Under the pieces are notes generated by a model. That model made no database searches and was not told where the DNA came from. It saw nothing but the letters and a program-made list of their open reading frames with translations. From Desulfobulbus propionicus DSM 2032 (GTDB lineage Bacteria; Desulfobacterota; Desulfobulbia; Desulfobulbales; Desulfobulbaceae): 32,000 bases of DNA. Each line of letters begins with the position of its first letter. Position 1 is the stretch's first letter. Shown piece by piece: positions 19,737 through 27,870 of this stretch. Where the stretch lies: contig NC_014972.1 of assembly GCF_000186885.1 (NCBI RefSeq), forward strand, positions 1 to 32,000, read 5' to 3'. The translations under genes were made by a program, and so were the position numbers.

Positions 19737-20078
19737 ATGACCGGAGTTGCCTGGGCCGCTGACGCTGCAGCGGCGCCCACGGGATTGGCCAGCGTTGCCC
19801 AATTTGTCCCGCTGATTCTCATTTTCATCGTTTTTTACTTTCTTCTCATCCGGCCGCAGCAGAAAAAGGCCAAGGAACACCAAAACTACCTGGCCAACCT
19901 GAAGAAGGGCGATAAGGTCATCACCGGCGGCGGCATTCATGGCCAGATCGTCGGCCTGACCGACACCGTGGCCACTCTGGAGATCGCCGAGAACGTGCGC
20001 ATCAAGGTCAACCGCGCCGCCATTGCCGGTTCGGCCGCCGACGCGGACAAGCCGGCTCCGGCCAAGGCTGGTGGCTGA
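19737..20078 (+). CDS. yajC: Preprotein translocase subunit YajC
   Basis: FVPLILIFIVFYFLLIRPQQKKAKEH and LKKGDKVITGGGIHGQIVGL. GGAGGA lies 7 nt upstream of ATG 19737. Position directly after tgt. Confidence 0.9.
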   Translation: MTGVAWAADAAAAPTGLASVAQFVPLILIFIVFYFLLIRPQQKKAKEHQNYLANLKKGDKVITGGGIHGQIVGLTDTVATLEIAENVRIKVNRAAIAGSAADADKPAPAKAGG

Positions 20079-20215
20079 GGGCTCAAGGGCTGCAGCTGAT
20101 TTTCATCGTGCATGAAAAAAACTGAACCAGCGCTCGCGCTTTCCTGAACATTCGCCTCGCCCAGAACGCGCGCTTGTTTCCTGTTCCGCAAGGCACGGGT
20201 GAGCAAAACCAACCG

Positions 20216-20253
20216 GCCGCACAGCTGATTCGTTCAGCCGTGCGGCTTTTTTT
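20216..20253 (+). terminator. Rho-independent terminator (13-bp stem with one mismatch, 5-nt loop, T7 tract)
   Basis: gccgcacagctga-ttcgt-tcagccgtgcggc followed by ttttttt, read directly. Confidence 0.8.
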
Positions 20254-20266
20254 GTCTCGGTGATCT

Positions 20267-21052
20267 GTGGTGGAACAATTGGTGTTCAGCGGTCATACCG
20301 GCCACCATCCGGTGCGTGTCAGCGATGCGGGCACGCTACGCACCCTTCGCTTCGGCACCGAGGAACGGCAAAGCTGCATCGATCTGCGCAACCCGCACAT
20401 CCTGCAACTCGCCTATACCCGGTGGATGAGCACCGCCCTGCTGCTTCCCCCCCGTTTGGACAAATTTCTTGTCCTCGGCCTGGGCGGCGGCGCCCTGCCG
20501 CATTTCCTTCTCCACCATCACCCGCAATCCTCGATCGACGTGGTGGAAAAGGAACGGCTGGTGATCGAGGTGGCCTACGGCTATTTCCGCCTTCCACTCC
20601 ACCCGGGGGTGCGCATGATTCCCCAGGATGCCCTATCCTTTCTCCGTACCCCCTCTTCCTGCGGATACGACGTCGCCTTCCTCGACATCTTCGGACCAGG
20701 AACCATGGCCCCGGCGCTGTTCGATCCGGAACTGTACCGACGGCTCCTCGAGCGGCTCCATCCGGAGGGTGTTTTGGCGATCAACCTGTGGAGCGGCGAC
20801 AAACCCTTGTACCAGCAGGCGATGGAGGCTGCGTATCGGGCCAGCGACGGTCGGTTGGTGCAGATGCAGGTCAAAAGGCGGAGCAACGTGATTGTGCTGC
20901 TTTTTCCCGAGGAGATCCCGCACAGGGCGATCAAGAAGGCGCGGAAACACAGCGTGGAGCACCAGCAACGCTATGATCTCGATTTCCCCCAATATCTCAA
21001 GCGGCTGTGCCGCGCCAACCGCTTCTCATTGCTGGCCTCCCTGCTTCGTTGA
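20267..21052 (+). CDS. Spermidine-synthase-like SAM-dependent transferase
   Basis: 261 aa. LRFGTEERQSCIDLRNP.ILQLAYTRWM, SAM-binding motif VLGLGGGALP, and DVAFLDIF are typical of spermidine synthase family proteins. GTG start. Confidence 0.65.
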   Translation: MVEQLVFSGHTGHHPVRVSDAGTLRTLRFGTEERQSCIDLRNPHILQLAYTRWMSTALLLPPRLDKFLVLGLGGGALPHFLLHHHPQSSIDVVEKERLVIEVAYGYFRLPLHPGVRMIPQDALSFLRTPSSCGYDVAFLDIFGPGTMAPALFDPELYRRLLERLHPEGVLAINLWSGDKPLYQQAMEAAYRASDGRLVQMQVKRRSNVIVLLFPEEIPHRAIKKARKHSVEHQQRYDLDFPQYLKRLCRANRFSLLASLLR

Positions 21053-21991
21053 CCCGGCCGCCGGCGTGCGCTGTCCCTGCCATATCCCTCGTTCGACCAT
21101 TCTCTGCTGAAGCCTGGCGCTGAGTGCAGCGGCATGACAGTGCCATCGCGGCGCGACCAACAGGTGGGGATGGGCCGTGGACCAGAGGCGGTGGAGGGTG
21201 AGGGCGGCCGGGATGTGTGGCACAAGGCGGAGCAGTAACTCCAGATAGGCCTCCTGATTCCACACGGGCACCTGCCCCTGTGTGTACAAACGATGCAGGG
21301 GCGTGTCGCGGATGACCTGCAGATGATGCAGCTTCAAATGCTGGAGGGGCAGGGCGCAGACGGTCCGCACCGTGGCCAGCATCTCTGCCTCCGATTCGCC
21401 GGGGATGCCGAGAATGAGATGGGCGCCGATCTCGATGCGCTGAACGGCGTGCAGCCGGTCGACCGCGGCGAGAAAGTCGGCAAAGCAGTGGTTGCGGTTG
21501 AGCAGGCGAAGACTTCTGTCGTGGATCGACTGCACTCCCAGCTCAACCAGGCACGCCTTGCCGGTCTTCTGTATCAGATCCGCAAGAGCCGCCGGCAGGT
21601 CAGCGGCGATGGTATCGGGCCGGGTGGAGAGAATCAGGCCCAGGCAATCGGGATCGGAGAGCATGCGTTGCAGATGGGGGAGGAGGTCGATGGTGGCTAG
21701 GGCGGTGGGGGTTTCTTGCTGAAAATAGGCGAAATAACGTGTGAATCGCCCGGCGAGCAACGAGGCCTTGCCGCGGCTGATCTGCTCGGCGAGCGGATCG
21801 GCGGCCCGCAGGAAGGCGGGGGTAAAACTGGCCGGCTGGCAATACAGACACCCGCCGCGCGCACGGTTGGGGCAAGGGATGCCCAGATCGAGGGGAATTT
21901 TGCCGACCGTCTGGCCGTATCGCTCGCGGCAGTGGACGCTGAAGGTCCGGATACGCGGTCGGTGCATGGCGGGCAAGCGAAGACCGGTCAA
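21026..21991 (-). CDS. Radical SAM protein, TIGR01212 (YhcC-like) family
   Basis: 321 aa. N-terminal cluster motif GIPCPNRARGGCLYCQ, then a TIM-barrel-like pattern (ELGVQSIHDRSL, HLILGIPGES). Alternative start at ATG 21967. Confidence 0.75.
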   Translation of the reverse strand: MTGLRLPAMHRPRIRTFSVHCRERYGQTVGKIPLDLGIPCPNRARGGCLYCQPASFTPAFLRAADPLAEQISRGKASLLAGRFTRYFAYFQQETPTALATIDLLPHLQRMLSDPDCLGLILSTRPDTIAADLPAALADLIQKTGKACLVELGVQSIHDRSLRLLNRNHCFADFLAAVDRLHAVQRIEIGAHLILGIPGESEAEMLATVRTVCALPLQHLKLHHLQVIRDTPLHRLYTQGQVPVWNQEAYLELLLRLVPHIPAALTLHRLWSTAHPHLLVAPRWHCHAAALSARLQQRMVERGIWQGQRTPAAGSTKQGGQQ

Positions 21992-22021
21992 GGAAACAGG
22001 CGGTTGGCGGATGCGGAGCGC

Positions 22022-22621
22022 TCAGGTTTGCTTGGGCGCTTCTATCACATGGTAATACCGTTCTCCGGCGCAGGCGCGGCAGAGTATCTTGCTGTTGACC
22101 TCCACCTCCCGGCAGTCCTGCACCCAGTCGCCGCACAGCTGGCACTGGACCCGGCGGAGCGGCCTGCCCGGCATGTCGCAGTCGTTGAGCTGGACGCTGA
22201 CCTCCTGGAAAAAGAACAATTCCTCCAGCGGCATGACCTTGTAGGCCTCCAGCTGCCGCTGGTATTTATCCATGATTTCGGGGCAATAGGATTCAGACAG
22301 GGTCCGTGCCTCCTCCCGGGCGGTGGCCCGGATGGCGCGACCGCTTTCCAGGTTGACGAAGGTGGCCGCCATGATGCCGAAATCGAGCCAGCGCAGCGAA
22401 CGCTTGCCAAGACTGCACCCAGTGACCGATTGAATGGCATCGGTGGCGCAGCGGTCGATCTCGACCAGCACGTAGAGCTTCTTCCGGTCCGCGCCCTTGG
22501 GATCGCTGATCCCGATTCGTTCCAGCGCCGCCATGGCCATGCGCACGCCGATCACCTGACCGGCGCAGATGTGGCCGTGAATCCTGGTCGACTCCGCCAG
22601 CAACTGCTCAAATGTCTCCAT
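22022..22621 (-). CDS. FmdE-family protein with C-terminal zinc ribbon
   Basis: 200 aa from ATG 22621. HGHICAGQVIGVRMA and RCATDAIQSVTGCSLGKR are typical of the FmdE domain. C-terminal CQLCGDW...CRACAG. The ORF-track start at 22843 overlaps the upstream gene and was rejected. Confidence 0.7.
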   Translation of the reverse strand: METFEQLLAESTRIHGHICAGQVIGVRMAMAALERIGISDPKGADRKKLYVLVEIDRCATDAIQSVTGCSLGKRSLRWLDFGIMAATFVNLESGRAIRATAREEARTLSESYCPEIMDKYQRQLEAYKVMPLEELFFFQEVSVQLNDCDMPGRPLRRVQCQLCGDWVQDCREVEVNSKILCRACAGERYYHVIEAPKQT

Positions 22622-22737
22622 GCTCTCCGCCGCCAATGCCTCTGTGTCCAGAGCCTCGGGTTCGTCTTTCCCACCCGCGGTCACCAACCCGCCTGGGTGA
22701 GCGGTTCCGAGGAACTTACTCCTGCCTATCGGCCCTG

Positions 22738-23811
22738 TCAATCGGCAGTCGCGCGCTGATCCCGGATCACCAGGGGAAGGGGACGGCTGATGGAGTCGAA
22801 CAGCTCCTTGCAGAACCCGCAGTGATCGCAGCGGTTGTCGCATTGGGAGAGCATGTTGGCGAAGTCAAAGGAGAGCATGCGGTTGTCGACGTAGAGGCGG
22901 TTCGCCAGCCAGGAGAGGGCGTCCATCAAGTCGAGCAGGTTGCCCTCATAACGGCGGGCACGGTAGGCGCTGATGGCGTTGATCAGAAAATCGGCTCCCA
23001 GGGTGCGACCGCAGAGTTTGATCGTATCCACATGGAACAGGTAGAGGTCGAGATCCTCCGGGCGGATGAAGGGCGACTGCAACAGCCGGTGGGGCTGCTC
23101 GTCCAGCAGTCGTATGCAGCCGATGTCGCAGTTGATGACATGGGTTTGATTGCGGCCGTCGATGTTGGCCAGGGCGATGTAGGAATCGTGGGAGAGCTTG
23201 AAGGGGCAGTAGGGCAGGCAGCCTTCATTGGCCAATACCTCGATGTTTATCGTCGGGAATTGGTGATGGATCTTCAGGGCGATGGCGGCCAGCTGGTCCA
23301 GGTTGCGGTTGAGGGAACGGTCGAGGATGATCTTGCCGGGCAACTTGAAGCCGGTCTCGCTGATATAGGAGAGCTGTGCCTCGATTTTGTGGCAGGAATC
23401 GAGCATGGTGTTGGCGCTGGGCACCGCCTCCAACTGGGCGGCGATATCCGGGCCTTCGTCGGCCAGCACCTGGAGCAGGTAGTGATCGCAGTAGACGATT
23501 CCGTCGATGACCCCTCGCTGCAGGCAGTGTTCCAACACGCGAAGGACGGGTTGGATGGTGGTGTGATCGGTGAGCAGTTCCGGGGTGTAGAAACGGCTGT
23601 TGAGCAGGGCGTATTTTTTCGGGCCCCGCAGGCGCGCCAGTCCGGAAAGGGTGTCTTCCTGGGCGGAAAGCGGCTCGATGCGGATGCGGCTGTCAAGGGC
23701 GCGGCCGTGCACCAGGCTGAAATGAACGCTGTCCAGATCTTTCGCGCAGGAACCGAGAAAATCGATATACCTTTCCTCGGGGAGGAAAGGGACATTAAGA
23801 AAAGGTTTCAT
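22738..23811 (-). CDS. Divergent peptidase-U32-family protein (paralogue B)
   Basis: 357 aa. U32-like core EVLANEGCLPYCPFKLSHD...VINCDIGC and VDTIKLCGR. Extra C-terminal CDNRCDHCGFC. Starts 6 nt after the stop of paralogue A. Confidence 0.55.
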   Translation of the reverse strand: MKPFLNVPFLPEERYIDFLGSCAKDLDSVHFSLVHGRALDSRIRIEPLSAQEDTLSGLARLRGPKKYALLNSRFYTPELLTDHTTIQPVLRVLEHCLQRGVIDGIVYCDHYLLQVLADEGPDIAAQLEAVPSANTMLDSCHKIEAQLSYISETGFKLPGKIILDRSLNRNLDQLAAIALKIHHQFPTINIEVLANEGCLPYCPFKLSHDSYIALANIDGRNQTHVINCDIGCIRLLDEQPHRLLQSPFIRPEDLDLYLFHVDTIKLCGRTLGADFLINAISAYRARRYEGNLLDLMDALSWLANRLYVDNRMLSFDFANMLSQCDNRCDHCGFCKELFDSISRPLPLVIRDQRATAD

Positions 23812-23817
23812 GACTAC

Positions 23818-25080
23818 TCATAGATGTTTGCGCAACAGCGCGTGCGGTTCAACGTGGCGGAGGGGCGGGTCGGTCCGGACCACCACCAGGTTTCCGGGAT
23901 TAGCCCGGCTCATTGGCGTGCCGTCTTCCAGGTGCATGGCGCTGACCGTCACCGTGTCCGGTTCGATGCTTGGCCCCAGGTACTCGATGTGGTCGCCACA
24001 GTTGAGCACATGCCGGGTTTCGATCAGCAGCGGCTCCACCGCGCGGACGATGCCCACCGGCACGAATTTTTGCTCAAACCTCATTCTATCATACAACATG
24101 TCCGCGGATGAAGGCCTGGCACGGAAAAAGTTTTCTGTCTGGCCACGGGTGCCGATCTTGCTTAATTCGTTATCAAAAGCTTCGGGCAGGGTAAGGCTAA
24201 CCGCTGGTTGACCTGAAAGAAGCTGCTCCCGGATCCACTCCAGGGCCAGACGGTAGAGACGGACTACCGCTCCCACATAGCCGACGGATTTCATCCGCCC
24301 CTCGATCTTGATCGCATCCACGCCGGCATCGACCAGGGACGGTAGATGGTGAAGCAGGCAGAGGTCACGGGAGTTGAAAATATAGGTGCCCCGCTCATCC
24401 TCTTCCACTGGAAAATAGTGTCCCGGACGTTTTTCTTCAACCACAGCGTAGGAGTAACGGCAGGGATGGGCACAGTCACCCAGGTTAGCGTTGCGGCCGG
24501 TGAAGTAGTTGCTCAACATGCAGCGGCCGGAGTAGGAAATGCACAGGGCGCCGTGGACGAACACCTCCAGCTCGACGCCGGTGGCGGCGCGGATGGCGCG
24601 AATCTCCTCGAGGCCGAGTTCACGGGCCAGGTTGAGCCGGCACACCCCCTGCTCGGCCCAAAAGCGGGCGCTGGCCCTGTTGGTGACGTTGGCCTGAGTG
24701 GAGAGATGCAGGGGCAGGTCCGGGACAATCCGTCGGGCTAGGGCAAGAATGCCGGGATCGCTGACGATCAGGCCGTCGGCCTGGAGGTCGCGGAGCATGC
24801 GCAGATAGGGCTCCAACCCCTCAAGGTCGCGGTTGTGGGCAAAGATGTTGACCGTGACATAGACCTTGACCCCGTGCGCGTGGGCGTAGGCAACGGCCTG
24901 GCGCAGACCGTCTTCGTCGAAATTGCCGGCCCGGGCACGGAGGCTGAAGGTCTTGCCGCCGAGATACACGGCGTCGGCGCCGTAATGGACGGCGGTCACC
25001 AGTTTGTCAAAGCTGCCGGCCGGCGCCAGGAGTTCGGGCAGCCGGGGGCCACGGTCCGTGGCTGGAGGGAAAGGAGGCAT
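23818..25080 (-). CDS. Peptidase U32 family protein (TrhP/YegQ/YrrO-like Fe-S enzyme)
   Basis: 420 aa. ELLAPAGSFDKLVTAVHYGADAVYLGG, and FVHGALCISYSGRCMLSNYFTGRNANLGDCAHPCRY (C-x6-C-x15-C-x3-C at aa 180-207). IKIEGRMK motif. Confidence 0.8.
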   Translation of the reverse strand: MPPFPPATDRGPRLPELLAPAGSFDKLVTAVHYGADAVYLGGKTFSLRARAGNFDEDGLRQAVAYAHAHGVKVYVTVNIFAHNRDLEGLEPYLRMLRDLQADGLIVSDPGILALARRIVPDLPLHLSTQANVTNRASARFWAEQGVCRLNLARELGLEEIRAIRAATGVELEVFVHGALCISYSGRCMLSNYFTGRNANLGDCAHPCRYSYAVVEEKRPGHYFPVEEDERGTYIFNSRDLCLLHHLPSLVDAGVDAIKIEGRMKSVGYVGAVVRLYRLALEWIREQLLSGQPAVSLTLPEAFDNELSKIGTRGQTENFFRARPSSADMLYDRMRFEQKFVPVGIVRAVEPLLIETRHVLNCGDHIEYLGPSIEPDTVTVSAMHLEDGTPMSRANPGNLVVVRTDPPLRHVEPHALLRKHL

Positions 25081-25399
25081 GGGCGTCTTGAGAGGTACGG
25101 GAAAACCGGAATGGGATCAAAAGGAACGAGAGAATGAAGGAGCGAAAACGTGCATGGGGTTTTAAAGAAGATGATGGCGGCCGTCAAGCCAAAGCAAGCG
25201 AATCAGGCGGTATCGACCAAAGCGGCAGGCAACGGCCCGCCGTTTTGGTCGTTCAACGCTTCTTGTCCCTCATCGATCACGGAACGGACGGCGAGATAGT
25301 GCTTGCCCGGGCGCTTTGCCTCATTTACATTGAATAACCATATGTTGAACAGCATTCCGGTCTGAAGTGTATTCGCCTTTTCCAGGCAAGGAGCAGTGT

Positions 25400-25696
25400 A
25401 TGCTGAAAAAAAGTTATTCCAAAACCGGCGCGGCCTGTCGCGTCACCTTTAAATACGAAAACGAGGAGCAGGCGGAAACCGCCGTCCTGGCCGGCGACTT
25501 CAACGATTGGTCGCTTCAGGCGACCCCGATGAAAAAACTCAAGGATGGCAGTTTTTCCGCCACTCTTTCCCTGCCGGCCGGGCAGAACTATCGCTTTCGG
25601 TATGTGCTCGACGGCGGAGTGTGGGTCAACGACACGGCGGCCGACGGTTATGCCCCCAACGAGTTCGGCGAGGCCAACTCGGTGCTGGCCCTCTGA
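25400..25696 (+). CDS. CBM48 / glycogen-binding (isoamylase early-set) domain protein
   Basis: 98 aa from ATG 25400 (AAGGAG 6 nt upstream). VTFKYENE...AVLAGDFNDWS...PMKKLKDGSFSATLSLPAGQNYRFRYVLDG.WVND. Confidence 0.7.
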   Translation: MLKKSYSKTGAACRVTFKYENEEQAETAVLAGDFNDWSLQATPMKKLKDGSFSATLSLPAGQNYRFRYVLDGGVWVNDTAADGYAPNEFGEANSVLAL

Positions 25697-25730
25697 GCCG
25701 ACCGCCGCCGACCCACTGAGGCGCGTTGGC

Positions 25731-26285
25731 TTAAAAGCAGTCACCCACCCTGGCCCGATGATACTCGTTTTTCAGGTCCACGTATCGCCGCCATGAAGCC
25801 TGCATTTCCCGCACTTGGGCATCACTGACCTCCCGAACCACCTTGGCCGGGGTACCCATGATCAGGGAGCGCGGCGGGAACTGTTTGCCGGGGGTGACCA
25901 CCGAGCCGGCGCCGACGATCGATTCCCGGCCGATGACCGCGCCGTCAAGAATGATCGCCCCCATGCCGATCAGGCAGAGATCCCCCACCGTGCAGCCATG
26001 GAGAATGGCGCGGTGACCAACGGTGACATCGCAGCCGATGATCGTCGGATGGCCGTCCTGGTCGCTGCGCTCCGCGCCCTCGTGCTGGGTGATGTGGAGC
26101 AGGCTGAGGTCCTGGATGTTGGTCCGCGCGCCGATGCGAATGCGGTGGACGTCGCCACGGACAATGACGCCGAACCACAGGGACACATCCTCGCCCAGCA
26201 CCGCATCGCCGATGAGGGTGGCGTTGGGCGCCACCCAGCCGCCCTTGCCGACCTGCGGTTGATAGTCACGATACGATAAAATCAT
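25731..26285 (-). CDS. Gamma-carbonic-anhydrase-family hexapeptide-repeat protein
   Basis: 184 aa. VAPNATLIGDAVLGEDVSLWFGVIVRGDVHRIRIGARTNIQD, then HPTIIGCDVTVGHRAILHGCTVGD. Confidence 0.85.
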   Translation of the reverse strand: MILSYRDYQPQVGKGGWVAPNATLIGDAVLGEDVSLWFGVIVRGDVHRIRIGARTNIQDLSLLHITQHEGAERSDQDGHPTIIGCDVTVGHRAILHGCTVGDLCLIGMGAIILDGAVIGRESIVGAGSVVTPGKQFPPRSLIMGTPAKVVREVSDAQVREMQASWRRYVDLKNEYHRARVGDCF

Positions 26286-26487
26286 CTTTCCCTCCTGTTG
26301 TTGAAGTTGCAGCGGCCGTTGTTCCGGCTCCGGCCGATCCCCACGCCTGGGGCAGGCGCGGGAGTCGATGCATCAAAAATAAGGATGGTGTCCTGGCTGC
26401 ACAAGCGCTTGAGGCCGTGTCACCGCCGCTTCCTCCCCTGGACAGCTTCGCCGCTCGCCGCAGGGGTGATCCGCAGATGGCAGAGGT

Positions 26488-27870
26488 TCATTGAAAGCTG
26501 ATTTGCTGGCGGAAAAAATCGCGGAACTCGTCCGGACGGTGGCTGACGTAGAGCATGGTGGCCAGTTCCTCTTCGGCGATACCGGCCAGAAAATCGAGCA
26601 AGGCCAACCGGTTGGATTCGTCCAGTCCTTGGGTGGGTTCGTCGAGAATCAAAAGCCGCGGCACCTTGATCAGGGCTCGGGCAAGCAGGAGCAGACGCTG
26701 CTCGCCGTAGCTCAGACGACGAAAGGGCTGGCCGGCCTTGGACTCCAGGCCGAGCCGCGCCAGCCACCGGCGGCCGAGCTGTTCCTGGGCGCTGTTTGGC
26801 CGGGTGTAGAGACCGATCGAGTCGAACAGCCCCGACACCACGATCGCCAGCGCGCTGCCGGCGATGCGGTGGTTGCGGTGCAGATCGGCACTGACGATCC
26901 CCATCTGCCGCTTGATCTCCCAGATCGACTCGCCGCTGCCCCGCCGCCGGCCGAACAGGGACAGGTCGTTGCTGTAACACAGCGGGTGATCGCCGGTGAT
27001 GATCTGCAACAAGGTGGACTTGCCACAGCCGTTGGGGCCGGTGATCAGGGTATGGTCGCCGCGGTTGATGGTCAGCTCAAGACCGCTGAAGACCTCGATC
27101 TCGCCATAGCGGGCAAAGCCGCGGCGCAGGGTGACCAGATTGTCGCAGCCGTTGCCATCCATCTGCCGCTCGTCGCGCAGTTCCGCCACCGAGACCCGAA
27201 ACAGCGGCGGTTGCCGGCGCAGCAGTTCCCTGACCTCGTCCAGCACCTGTGCGCGAGGCCCCTGGACCACCAGGGCGCCCGCGTGCAACCCGCCGACATG
27301 GGTGCACCAGTCCGGGATGTCGGCGGTGTTGTTGACCAGGAGGAGCAGGCCCATCCCCTGGACGCGCAATCCGGCCAACACCCGGTTCAGCTCCCGGCAG
27401 CTGGCCTGGTCAAGGCCTTCGTAAGGCGTTTCCAGCACCAGGAAGGACACCCCCCGGGTGATCTGCTGCAGCAGGCAGAGCTTGCGCGCCTGGCCGGAAC
27501 TGAGCTGGCGGTAGCCCCGGTCGAGCAGCGCATCCAGGGCAAAAAGCTTGATCAGCTCCCGGTGCGCGTCCACATCGGTGAGGAAGGCGCGGGCCGGGGT
27601 GCCGGGATCGAGGCGGTTGAGGAAGTCGGTGTCGTCCTTGCGCAGTTCTTCCTCGAAGATCGATTGCTGGCCCTTGAACGAGAGCAGACCCAGCTCCGGA
27701 GGCAGGCGTAGGGCTTCGGCCCGGTACGCACGGCTCTCCCCGGCCAGCAGGTCGCACAGCTTCTCCAGGCCCGAAGCGTTGGAGCCAACCAGGCACCAGG
27801 CCTCGCCCGGCCTGGCGCGGAAATGGTCGATGCGCAAGCCCTCGGCCGTCAGGCGATCAATGACCAGCAT
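26488..27870 (-). CDS. modF: ModF-like tandem ABC ATPase (no membrane domain)
   Basis: 460 aa. The second NBD is canonical (ITGPNGCGKSTLLQIITGDHP, LSYGEQRLLLLARAL, LLILDEPTQGLD). YSNDLSLFGRRRGSGESIWEIK matches my recollection of E. coli ModF closely. The first NBD is degenerate. Confidence 0.7.
   Translation of the reverse strand: MLVIDRLTAEGLRIDHFRARPGEAWCLVGSNASGLEKLCDLLAGESRAYRAEALRLPPELGLLSFKGQQSIFEEELRKDDTDFLNRLDPGTPARAFLTDVDAHRELIKLFALDALLDRGYRQLSSGQARKLCLLQQITRGVSFLVLETPYEGLDQASCRELNRVLAGLRVQGMGLLLLVNNTADIPDWCTHVGGLHAGALVVQGPRAQVLDEVRELLRRQPPLFRVSVAELRDERQMDGNGCDNLVTLRRGFARYGEIEVFSGLELTINRGDHTLITGPNGCGKSTLLQIITGDHPLCYSNDLSLFGRRRGSGESIWEIKRQMGIVSADLHRNHRIAGSALAIVVSGLFDSIGLYTRPNSAQEQLGRRWLARLGLESKAGQPFRRLSYGEQRLLLLARALIKVPRLLILDEPTQGLDESNRLALLDFLAGIAEEELATMLYVSHRPDEFRDFFRQQISFQ

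Follow-up and report, generated by a model that had tools for sequence, protein, structure and literature searches.

A predicted trhP gene coupled to a divergent U32-fold gene within a composite gene row of Desulfobulbus propionicus

Results

Four co-directional genes in the first 32 kb of the chromosome

We analysed the first 32 kb of the 3.85-Mb single-contig genome of Desulfobulbus propionicus DSM 2032 (NC_014972.1, positions 1 to 32,000; this whole stretch is referred to as the window). A row of four minus-strand genes in the window encodes a TrhP-type U32 protein (U32A), a divergent protein of the U32 superfamily (U32B), an FmdE-domain protein, and a radical S-adenosylmethionine (SAM) protein of the MnmL/YtqA/YhcC type (Table 1). 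The novelty of this array lies in the U32B family, which has not been described, and in its coupling to TrhP. The row as a whole is a composite specific to the Desulfobulbaceae rather than one pathway.

A preliminary description of the sequence had reported closely spaced co-directional genes separated by 6, 116 and 30 nucleotides (nt), and the positions of the open reading frames (ORFs) bear this out when the start of the FmdE gene is corrected. The open frame of this gene reaches from 22022 to 22843. The guanine-plus-cytosine (GC) contents at the three codon positions were coding-like in 22022-22621 (0.61/0.42/0.82) and non-coding-like in 22622-22843 (0.73/0.59/0.59), and the FmdE Pfam domain begins 14 amino acids (aa) past the ATG at 22621. 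We therefore took this ATG as the biological start, which gives 200 codons and the three gaps mentioned above.

Table 1 Coordinates of the four genes and of the intervals between and upstream of them
Feature	Position in the window	Strand	Description
U32A (gene 1)	23818..25080	minus	ORF, 420 aa; TrhP-type U32 iron–sulfur (Fe-S) hydroxylase (predicted), U32 domain and U32 C-terminal domain
U32B (gene 2)	22738..23811	minus	ORF, 357 aa; divergent U32-superfamily TIM-barrel protein (predicted)
FmdE (gene 3)	22022..22621	minus	199 aa; FmdE domain and C-terminal zinc ribbon
MnmL/YtqA/YhcC-type radical SAM (gene 4)	21026..21991	minus	ORF, 321 aa, TTG start; TIGR01212
U32A/U32B junction	23812..23817	minus	6-nt spacer; the two ORFs are in the same frame
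U32B-FmdE spacer	22622..22737	minus	116 nt
Non-coding region 5' of U32A	25081..25324	minus	244 nt; putative promoter region of the gene row

U32A is a predicted TrhP orthologue

U32A scored above the Pfam gathering score for PF01136 (E 1.3e-89, 299.9 bits; cut-off 22.4) and matched PF16325 (U32_C; E 3e-09, 37.4 bits). Inspection of its conserved residues located the cysteines C180x6C187x15C203x3C207, in which the x6, x15 and x3 spacings are exactly those of the four-cysteine motif CX6CX15CX3/4C that binds a [4Fe-4S] cluster in U32 proteins (bioRxiv 10.1101/587956). The preliminary description had regarded U32 proteins as Fe-S enzymes that perform O2-independent hydroxylations, which is correct. 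The best NCBIfam model for U32A was TrhP (328 bits). The genome has two further canonical U32 genes, which the hidden Markov model of TrhP scored at 214 and 173 bits. U32A fell short of the equivalog cut-offs of UbiU (193 versus 440 bits) and UbiV (44 versus 275 bits).

U32A and Escherichia coli TrhP were reciprocal best hits with 35% identity over 419 aa, and a maximum-likelihood (ML) tree with E. coli references grouped the U32A clade with E. coli TrhP (support 83/81). E. coli RlhA mapped to another gene, at 3.46 Mb, which encodes a 704-aa protein with U32 and DUF3656 domains (45% identity, E 9e-151) and joined RlhA in the tree at 100/100. The third U32 paralogue (751 aa, ~3260733-3262988) has its U32 domain at residues 87-309, followed by ~440 residues that match no Pfam model, and its attachment to the RlhA branch is loose (90/89).

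The genome encodes cmoA (250 bits; curated cut-off 193) and cmoB (370 bits; cut-off 275), both away from the window genes. As a strict anaerobe with cmoA and cmoB, D. propionicus needs a source of 5-hydroxyuridine (ho5U) at tRNA position 34 that does not depend on O2. Orthologues of U32A with 51-81% identity were found in 120 of the 121 genomes sampled from the order. In sister families U32A is divergent from mnmA (357 bits, cut-off 284), which is followed by mtaB, cinA and recA, in five of eight loci (L139-L142, L146), and remnants of mnmA-mtaB were observed ~6-7 kb upstream in some loci of the Desulfobulbaceae (L076, L083, L090). The mnmA-mtaB neighbourhood is a second, independent tie of U32A to the modification of wobble uridines. 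We assign U32A as trhP, a predicted prephenate-dependent hydroxylase of tRNA U34. Like TrhP (YegQ) of E. coli, its product combines a U32 domain with a U32 C-terminal domain and carries the canonical CX6CX15CX3C motif, and cmoA and cmoB accompany it in the genome. Unlike E. coli trhP, the gene in the window scores below the equivalog cut-off and is trailed by a coupled second gene of the U32 fold.

U32B belongs to a divergent family with the U32 fold

No Pfam or NCBIfam model matched U32B even at E 10, those of UbiU and UbiV included, and BLASTP detected no significant similarity to the canonical U32 proteins (E > 0.1). Searches with U32B gave 628 matches in a collection clustered at 90% identity, some of which are labelled 'collagenase-like PrtC'. 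At E < 1e-30 the family comprised 94 clusters (50% identity), nearly all of ~350 aa, and a search of the ESM Atlas returned only clusters of the family itself, mainly from Thermodesulfobacteriota. The profile of the family matched a U32 entry of the Protein Data Bank (PDB), 5d88 (E 1.8e-4), and only 2 of 48 family members matched PF01136. The AlphaFold2 (AF2) model of U32B had a predicted local distance difference test score (pLDDT) of 94, and its top Foldseek match was again 5d88 (E 1.8e-8; template modelling (TM) score 0.68 on the target). The hhalign comparison of U32B with canonical U32 proteins gave a probability of 93.9% (E 1.6e-7, 265 columns), and a bridging family of ~420 aa matched both. 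Because the family profile, the two PF01136 matches, the fold, the hhalign result and the bridging family agree, U32B is placed in the U32 superfamily as a remote member. Of the 'two U32 paralogues' of the preliminary description, U32A is recognised as a U32 protein by Pfam, and U32B is related to U32 proteins at the level of profile and fold only.

In the ML tree, U32B formed its own clade (100/98), sister to the bridging family, and a long branch sets it apart from TrhP, RlhA, UbiU and UbiV. The phylogeny that had been proposed for both proteins, run with E. coli references, grouped U32A with E. coli TrhP and left U32B apart from all of these references. Members of the ~420-aa intermediate family (L015-L033, other Desulfobacterota) are often encoded as tandem pairs ~1.2 kb apart, e.g. 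at 1195-3404 of L029.

Invariant residues of the U32B family are N195-E196-G197-C198, C202, C232, P247, P251, C324, C328, C331 and C334. The seven cysteines among them are arranged as NEGC198x3C202, C232 and a C-terminal C324x3C328x2C331x2C334, and members that come from five further taxonomic families of the phylum retain both motifs. The canonical CX6CX15CX3/4C is missing from U32B, in which the CX3C of C198 and C202 alone is left at a comparable place; C232 and the C-terminal four-cysteine motif are specific to the U32B family. The best match of U32B by both profile and fold, MK0906 of Methanopyrus kandleri (5d88), is 18% identical, and U32B differs from it by the added C-terminal Cx3Cx2Cx2C segment and the NEGCx3C motif. 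The published division of U32 proteins into 12 subfamilies rests on Pfam hits (PMC5727448; bioRxiv 10.1101/587956), and we infer that it would have overlooked the U32B family.

U32A and U32B are predicted to be translationally coupled

Close relatives were surveyed in 80 genome loci encoding relatives of U32B. U32A and U32B were adjacent in 64 of them, from Desulfobulbus, Desulfogranum, Candidatus Electronema and Candidatus Electrothrix. The stop codon of U32A and the start codon of U32B overlap as a 4-nt ATGA in 40 of these 64 loci and by 17 nt in 4; 1-nt overlaps also occur. Overlaps of this kind commonly mark translational coupling, by which the two genes are predicted to be coupled, and the 'pair' of the preliminary description is borne out as such a couple. 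In the window (23809-23823, minus) the junction reads TGA-GTA-GTC-ATG in frame, and read-through of the single TGA would give a 780-aa fusion. The in-frame junction looks incidental because the ATGA junction of the relatives is out of frame.

The FmdE gene follows the pair in ~59 of the 80 loci, at a distance of mostly 80-130 nt, and this spacer is poorly conserved. A GGGTAAGGT-like motif lies ~20 nt past the U32B stop (~22705-22725, minus) and is conserved in the Desulfobulbus loci L044-L097, in which the rest of the spacer is not. In three congeners that have no U32B, U32A and FmdE are directly adjacent. Electronema keeps the order U32A-U32B-FmdE, and none of the probed flanking genes was found nearby. 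Electrothrix keeps the U32A-U32B pair; FmdE is absent behind it, and the probed flanking genes were not found beside it. The core of TrhP, U32B and FmdE is limited to the Desulfobulbaceae.

In the 121-genome sample of the order, U32B was found in 21 genomes of three families and was adjacent to U32A in one family only. Near-universal co-occurrence and adjacency, as expected of an obligate pair, were not observed, since U32A is present in 120 of the 121 genomes.

The tandem arrangement resembles ubiU-ubiV of E. coli, two genes of the U32 fold 8 nt apart (6 nt in the window, or the ATGA overlap in relatives), whose products form a heterodimer (bioRxiv 10.1101/587956); UbiV, like U32B, has a non-standard cysteine pattern. 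In Bacillus subtilis, both trhP1 and trhP2 (yrrO and yrrN) are required for ho5U (PMC6599085). In contrast to U32B, which lies outside PF01136 on a long separate branch and occurs in 21 of 121 genomes, UbiU/UbiV and TrhP1/TrhP2 are canonical PF01136 proteins that almost always co-occur.

Solitary U32B genes have varied contexts

Elsewhere, U32B genes have several kinds of neighbours. In a distant genome (G390) the order is mnmA-mtaB-unknown-U32B. One metagenome-assembled genome (MAG; L119, 128-3332) has a gene of the tetrapyrrole-methylase fold, cobO overlapping U32B by 4 nt, U32B and FmdE in a row that contains no U32A, which makes a corrinoid link for U32B and FmdE possible. Eight metagenome loci have U32B followed by an NAD-epimerase/dehydratase gene (4-nt overlap), a HEAT/receiver protein gene and a RimK-like ligase gene; eight loci have the order hydrolase, U32B, flavin reductase, NlpC/P60; and in four loci a class-V aminotransferase (Aminotran_5) gene precedes U32B, with a gap of 9 nt in an example. 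A member 35% identical to U32B is encoded upstream of a xanthine-dehydrogenase-type enzyme. The neighbours of a solitary U32B gene in a sister family (a histidine-kinase-like ATPase, an RsmI-like methylase, CrcB, DUF190 and TauE) share no functional theme.

The FmdE gene has other partners in sister families

The FmdE protein matched PF02663 (E 7.9e-33, 113.8 bits), and the window copy is the sole FmdE gene of the genome. Its closest solved structure was 2gvi (E 7e-7), with an alignment that covers HGHxC and the C-terminal CxxC...C. The domain order, HGHxC and the C-terminal cysteines are the same as in the two-domain form of the family that carries a treble-clef zinc finger (2gvi, 3d00). Strong matches were counted by hand in ~82 of the 121 genomes (best E < 1e-50, most with 65-84% identity).

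In 8 of 12 sister-family loci (among L127-L137), FmdE lies directly upstream of a gene for a 346-aa PF00994/MoeA-like protein. This recalls the known fusions of FmdE with PF00994 (PMC2954224). The orthologue of the 346-aa protein in D. propionicus is encoded at 3244107-3245126, 3.2 Mb from FmdE, and unlike in the sister families, FmdE has moved beside trhP/U32B in the Desulfobulbaceae. No gene of a formylmethanofuran dehydrogenase, those of the fmd/fwd catalytic subunits included, lies near FmdE; its neighbours are U32B and MnmL here and the MoeA-like protein in the sister families.

Gene 4 is assigned to MnmL and occupies a variable slot

The protein of gene 4 scored 201.9 bits with TIGR01212, above the equivalog cut-off of 180. 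It has Radical_SAM and Radical_SAM_C domains and a C40x7C48x2C51 triad, and its nearest solved structures are the radical SAM domains of Elp3. The preliminary description had regarded the TIGR01212/YhcC family as one with no defined function, which is outdated. The family is named 'tRNA modification radical SAM protein MnmL/YtqA' by NCBI, and two studies have assigned its reaction: MnmL/YtqA converts 5-carboxymethylaminomethyl-2-thiouridine at position 34 (cmnm5s2U34) to 5-aminomethyl-2-thiouridine (nm5s2U34) in B. subtilis and Streptococcus mutans (bioRxiv 10.1101/2023.12.21.572861), and YhcC does so anaerobically in E. coli, with activity in vitro (bioRxiv 10.64898/2026.05.18.725915). Judged by its sequence, gene 4 is mnmL and encodes an enzyme of a known kind, sharing with YtqA and YhcC the equivalog-level score, both domains and the three-cysteine motif. 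As to the methylation step that comes next, mnmM does not lie beside gene 4, and no match to the MnmC2 domain (PF05430) was found in the genome.

MnmL was present in 19 of the 121 genomes of the order. It follows FmdE in 28 of the 80 loci, in which the four-gene order recurs, and its adjacency to FmdE is limited to unnamed MAGs of the Desulfobulbaceae and to the genera Desulfobulbus and Desulfogranum. In 13 loci the mnmL slot is empty, and FmdE is followed directly by the next conserved gene. In other families MnmL was unlinked to U32A and FmdE in the cases compared by contig and coordinate.

The slot of one congener (L034, 9988-10836, same as L064) holds a gene for a 282-aa HNH endonuclease of low GC content (0.41 at the third codon position), and the whole genome of this congener gave no match to TIGR01212. 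On the plus strand of the window, a gene for a 261-aa protein of the spermidine-synthase-like methyltransferase fold (20267-21052) converges on mnmL with a coding overlap of 27 nt and stays beside the cluster in relatives. This gene was considered as an equivalent of MnmC2/MnmM and rejected, its only matches being weak ones to Spermine_synth/PRK04457.

Metatranscriptome contigs and regulatory signals

In contigs assembled from metatranscriptome libraries, a single RNA-library contig spanned the U32A/U32B junction and the gaps of 116 and 30 nt in each of three studies. The contigs of all three studies break off within the 5' third of the mnmL gene (21577-21820), and the further sequence on contigs has a depth 3.5-17x lower. 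This is a weak hint that U32A, U32B and FmdE are co-expressed and mnmL is expressed less, and the contig ends could mark a transcript end or an attenuation point. No terminator-like hairpin was found at 21577-21820. A scan for promoters and terminators gave counts at the expectation from shuffled sequence, and none lay within the cluster on the minus strand. An Rfam scan of 20000-26500 yielded only a chance-level match to RNaseP-T (E 0.65) and none in the U32B-FmdE spacer. Upstream of U32A, TTGACG and TTAAAA are separated by ~16-17 nt and lie ~100 nt before the start codon, at a site that the consensus scan left unscored. The promoter of the cluster probably lies in this 244-nt region.

Discussion

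The comparisons lean slightly towards U32B as an accessory or second subunit of TrhP. In this reading TrhP would act as the housekeeping C5-hydroxylase of tRNA U34, independent of O2 and dependent on prephenate, and would supply ho5U for uridine 5-oxyacetic acid (cmo5U). U32B, whose seven invariant cysteines could hold two metal or Fe-S sites, would serve the TrhP of the Desulfobulbaceae as a second barrel that handles electrons or substrate. FmdE, predicted to bind zinc and ending in a zinc ribbon, probably shares the transcript of the pair upstream of it and might be a chaperone for a metal or cofactor, or an adaptor; its ancestral partner, found elsewhere in the order, would be the protein with the MoeA-like molybdenum-cofactor domain. 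MnmL would be a separate anaerobic enzyme for the step from cmnm5s2U34 to nm5s2U34, encoded in a variable 3' slot, which shares with the other genes the theme of anaerobic wobble-uridine modification rather than a pathway. What the compared sequences show is the identity of the genes, their homologies, the signature of coupling and their distribution; a physical interaction of U32A with U32B, their metal content and any role of FmdE are inferred.

Several points weigh against this reading. U32A is encoded without U32B in ~100 of the 121 genomes of the order, and U32B is therefore not an obligate partner of U32A. The conserved gene order comes from one family and is not independent evidence. 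In the two other families of the order that have it, U32B is either megabases away from U32A and FmdE or carried by another contig, and in these families as in other Desulfobacterota it lies far from U32A in unrelated contexts, which are heterogeneous and provide no one theme that names a substrate. As for U32A itself, its score is under the cut-off of the NCBIfam TrhP equivalog (NF011996; 328 versus 534 bits), and the tree support for its grouping with E. coli TrhP is only moderate. The RNA contigs may include DNA-derived sequence and are no proof of one common transcript, and gaps in their depth are not read as absence.

U32B may instead work independently of TrhP on a substrate of its own (another RNA position, a corrinoid, a quinone or another cofactor), as a hydroxylase that needs no O2 or as an Fe-S enzyme of another kind. 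In this case its gene was inserted behind trhP in the Desulfobulbaceae, and the coupling reflects shared regulation rather than a complex. We regard this as possible but rather unlikely. It is favoured by the number of U32B genes that stand without an adjacent U32A (16 of the 80 genome loci and ~55 of 80 metagenome loci), by the coupling of such solitary genes to the epimerase/dehydratase, cobO, aminotransferase and flavin reductase genes, by the three congeners that keep U32A-FmdE without U32B, and by the complete barrel and the invariant polar residues of its own that U32B retains. However, the stop/start overlap with trhP is kept in more than 40 loci from several genera, and the contexts of U32B elsewhere share no theme that would name another substrate. 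The U32B gene of G390 follows mnmA-mtaB, which are neighbours of trhP in the sister families, and this points to work on tRNA.

A narrower form of the reading in which U32B serves TrhP takes the enzyme to be multi-component. U32B, which has lost the CX6C half of the canonical motif and gained the C-terminal four cysteines, would together with the zinc-binding FmdE provide the electron-acceptor or oxidant branch in prephenate-dependent hydroxylation, or would retarget TrhP to a second RNA substrate. We consider this form doubtful.

It is quite improbable that the four genes have no functional relation and are unrelated genes left adjacent by a rearrangement near the assembled chromosome start, kept through the kinship of the genomes compared. 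The whole 10-kb region from an ABC ATPase gene to slyD-tgt-yajC is syntenic in Desulfobulbus, so that adjacency in this genus is weak evidence, and elsewhere the conserved neighbours of FmdE and of U32A are different genes. Nevertheless, the overlap of stop and start codons persists from genus to genus, the U32A-U32B(-FmdE) unit is kept in Electronema and Electrothrix without the probed flanking genes beside it, and L119 keeps U32B-FmdE in the absence of U32A.

The preliminary description had read the four genes as one uncharacterised anaerobic modification pathway acting on one substrate, which is very improbable. The co-directional genes with short gaps, the recurrence of the four-gene order in related loci, the RNA-library contigs across the FmdE-MnmL gap, and the predicted action of both U32A and MnmL at tRNA position 34 are in its favour. 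Against it, the reaction of MnmL is known, and its substrates are cmnm5s2U tRNAs, distinct from the 5-oxyuridine-derivative (xo5U) tRNAs of TrhP. The distributions also disagree: of the 121 genomes, 120 have U32A, 21 U32B and 19 MnmL, and no more than 5 genomes of the sample, from a single family, have both U32B and MnmL. Outside close relatives, MnmL is not beside U32A or FmdE in the genomes compared, and even among relatives it is gone from its slot in the 13 loci mentioned above and replaced by the HNH gene in one congener. The break of the RNA contigs inside MnmL, with the lower depth beyond, also argues against a common pathway. A lack of conserved linkage of the FmdE and radical SAM genes in other genomes had been named as part of what would speak against this reading, and the comparisons bear it out for MnmL and by half for FmdE.

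For annotation, the 420-aa gene can be named trhP-like and the TIGR01212 gene mnmL. For the orphan FmdE family, the best lead is the MoeA-like protein, a conserved partner in the order. Hydroxylations that draw oxygen from an organic donor, prephenate, are known from U32 enzymes only; their oxidant or electron acceptor is unknown, and no in vitro assay exists (PMC10990095). U32B, found mainly in Desulfobacterota and equipped with a different and richer cysteine complement, is a concrete candidate for a partner or variant of U32 chemistry. If the multi-component form of TrhP were true, U32B would represent a thirteenth functional U32 subfamily and would offer a handle on the redox half of this chemistry.

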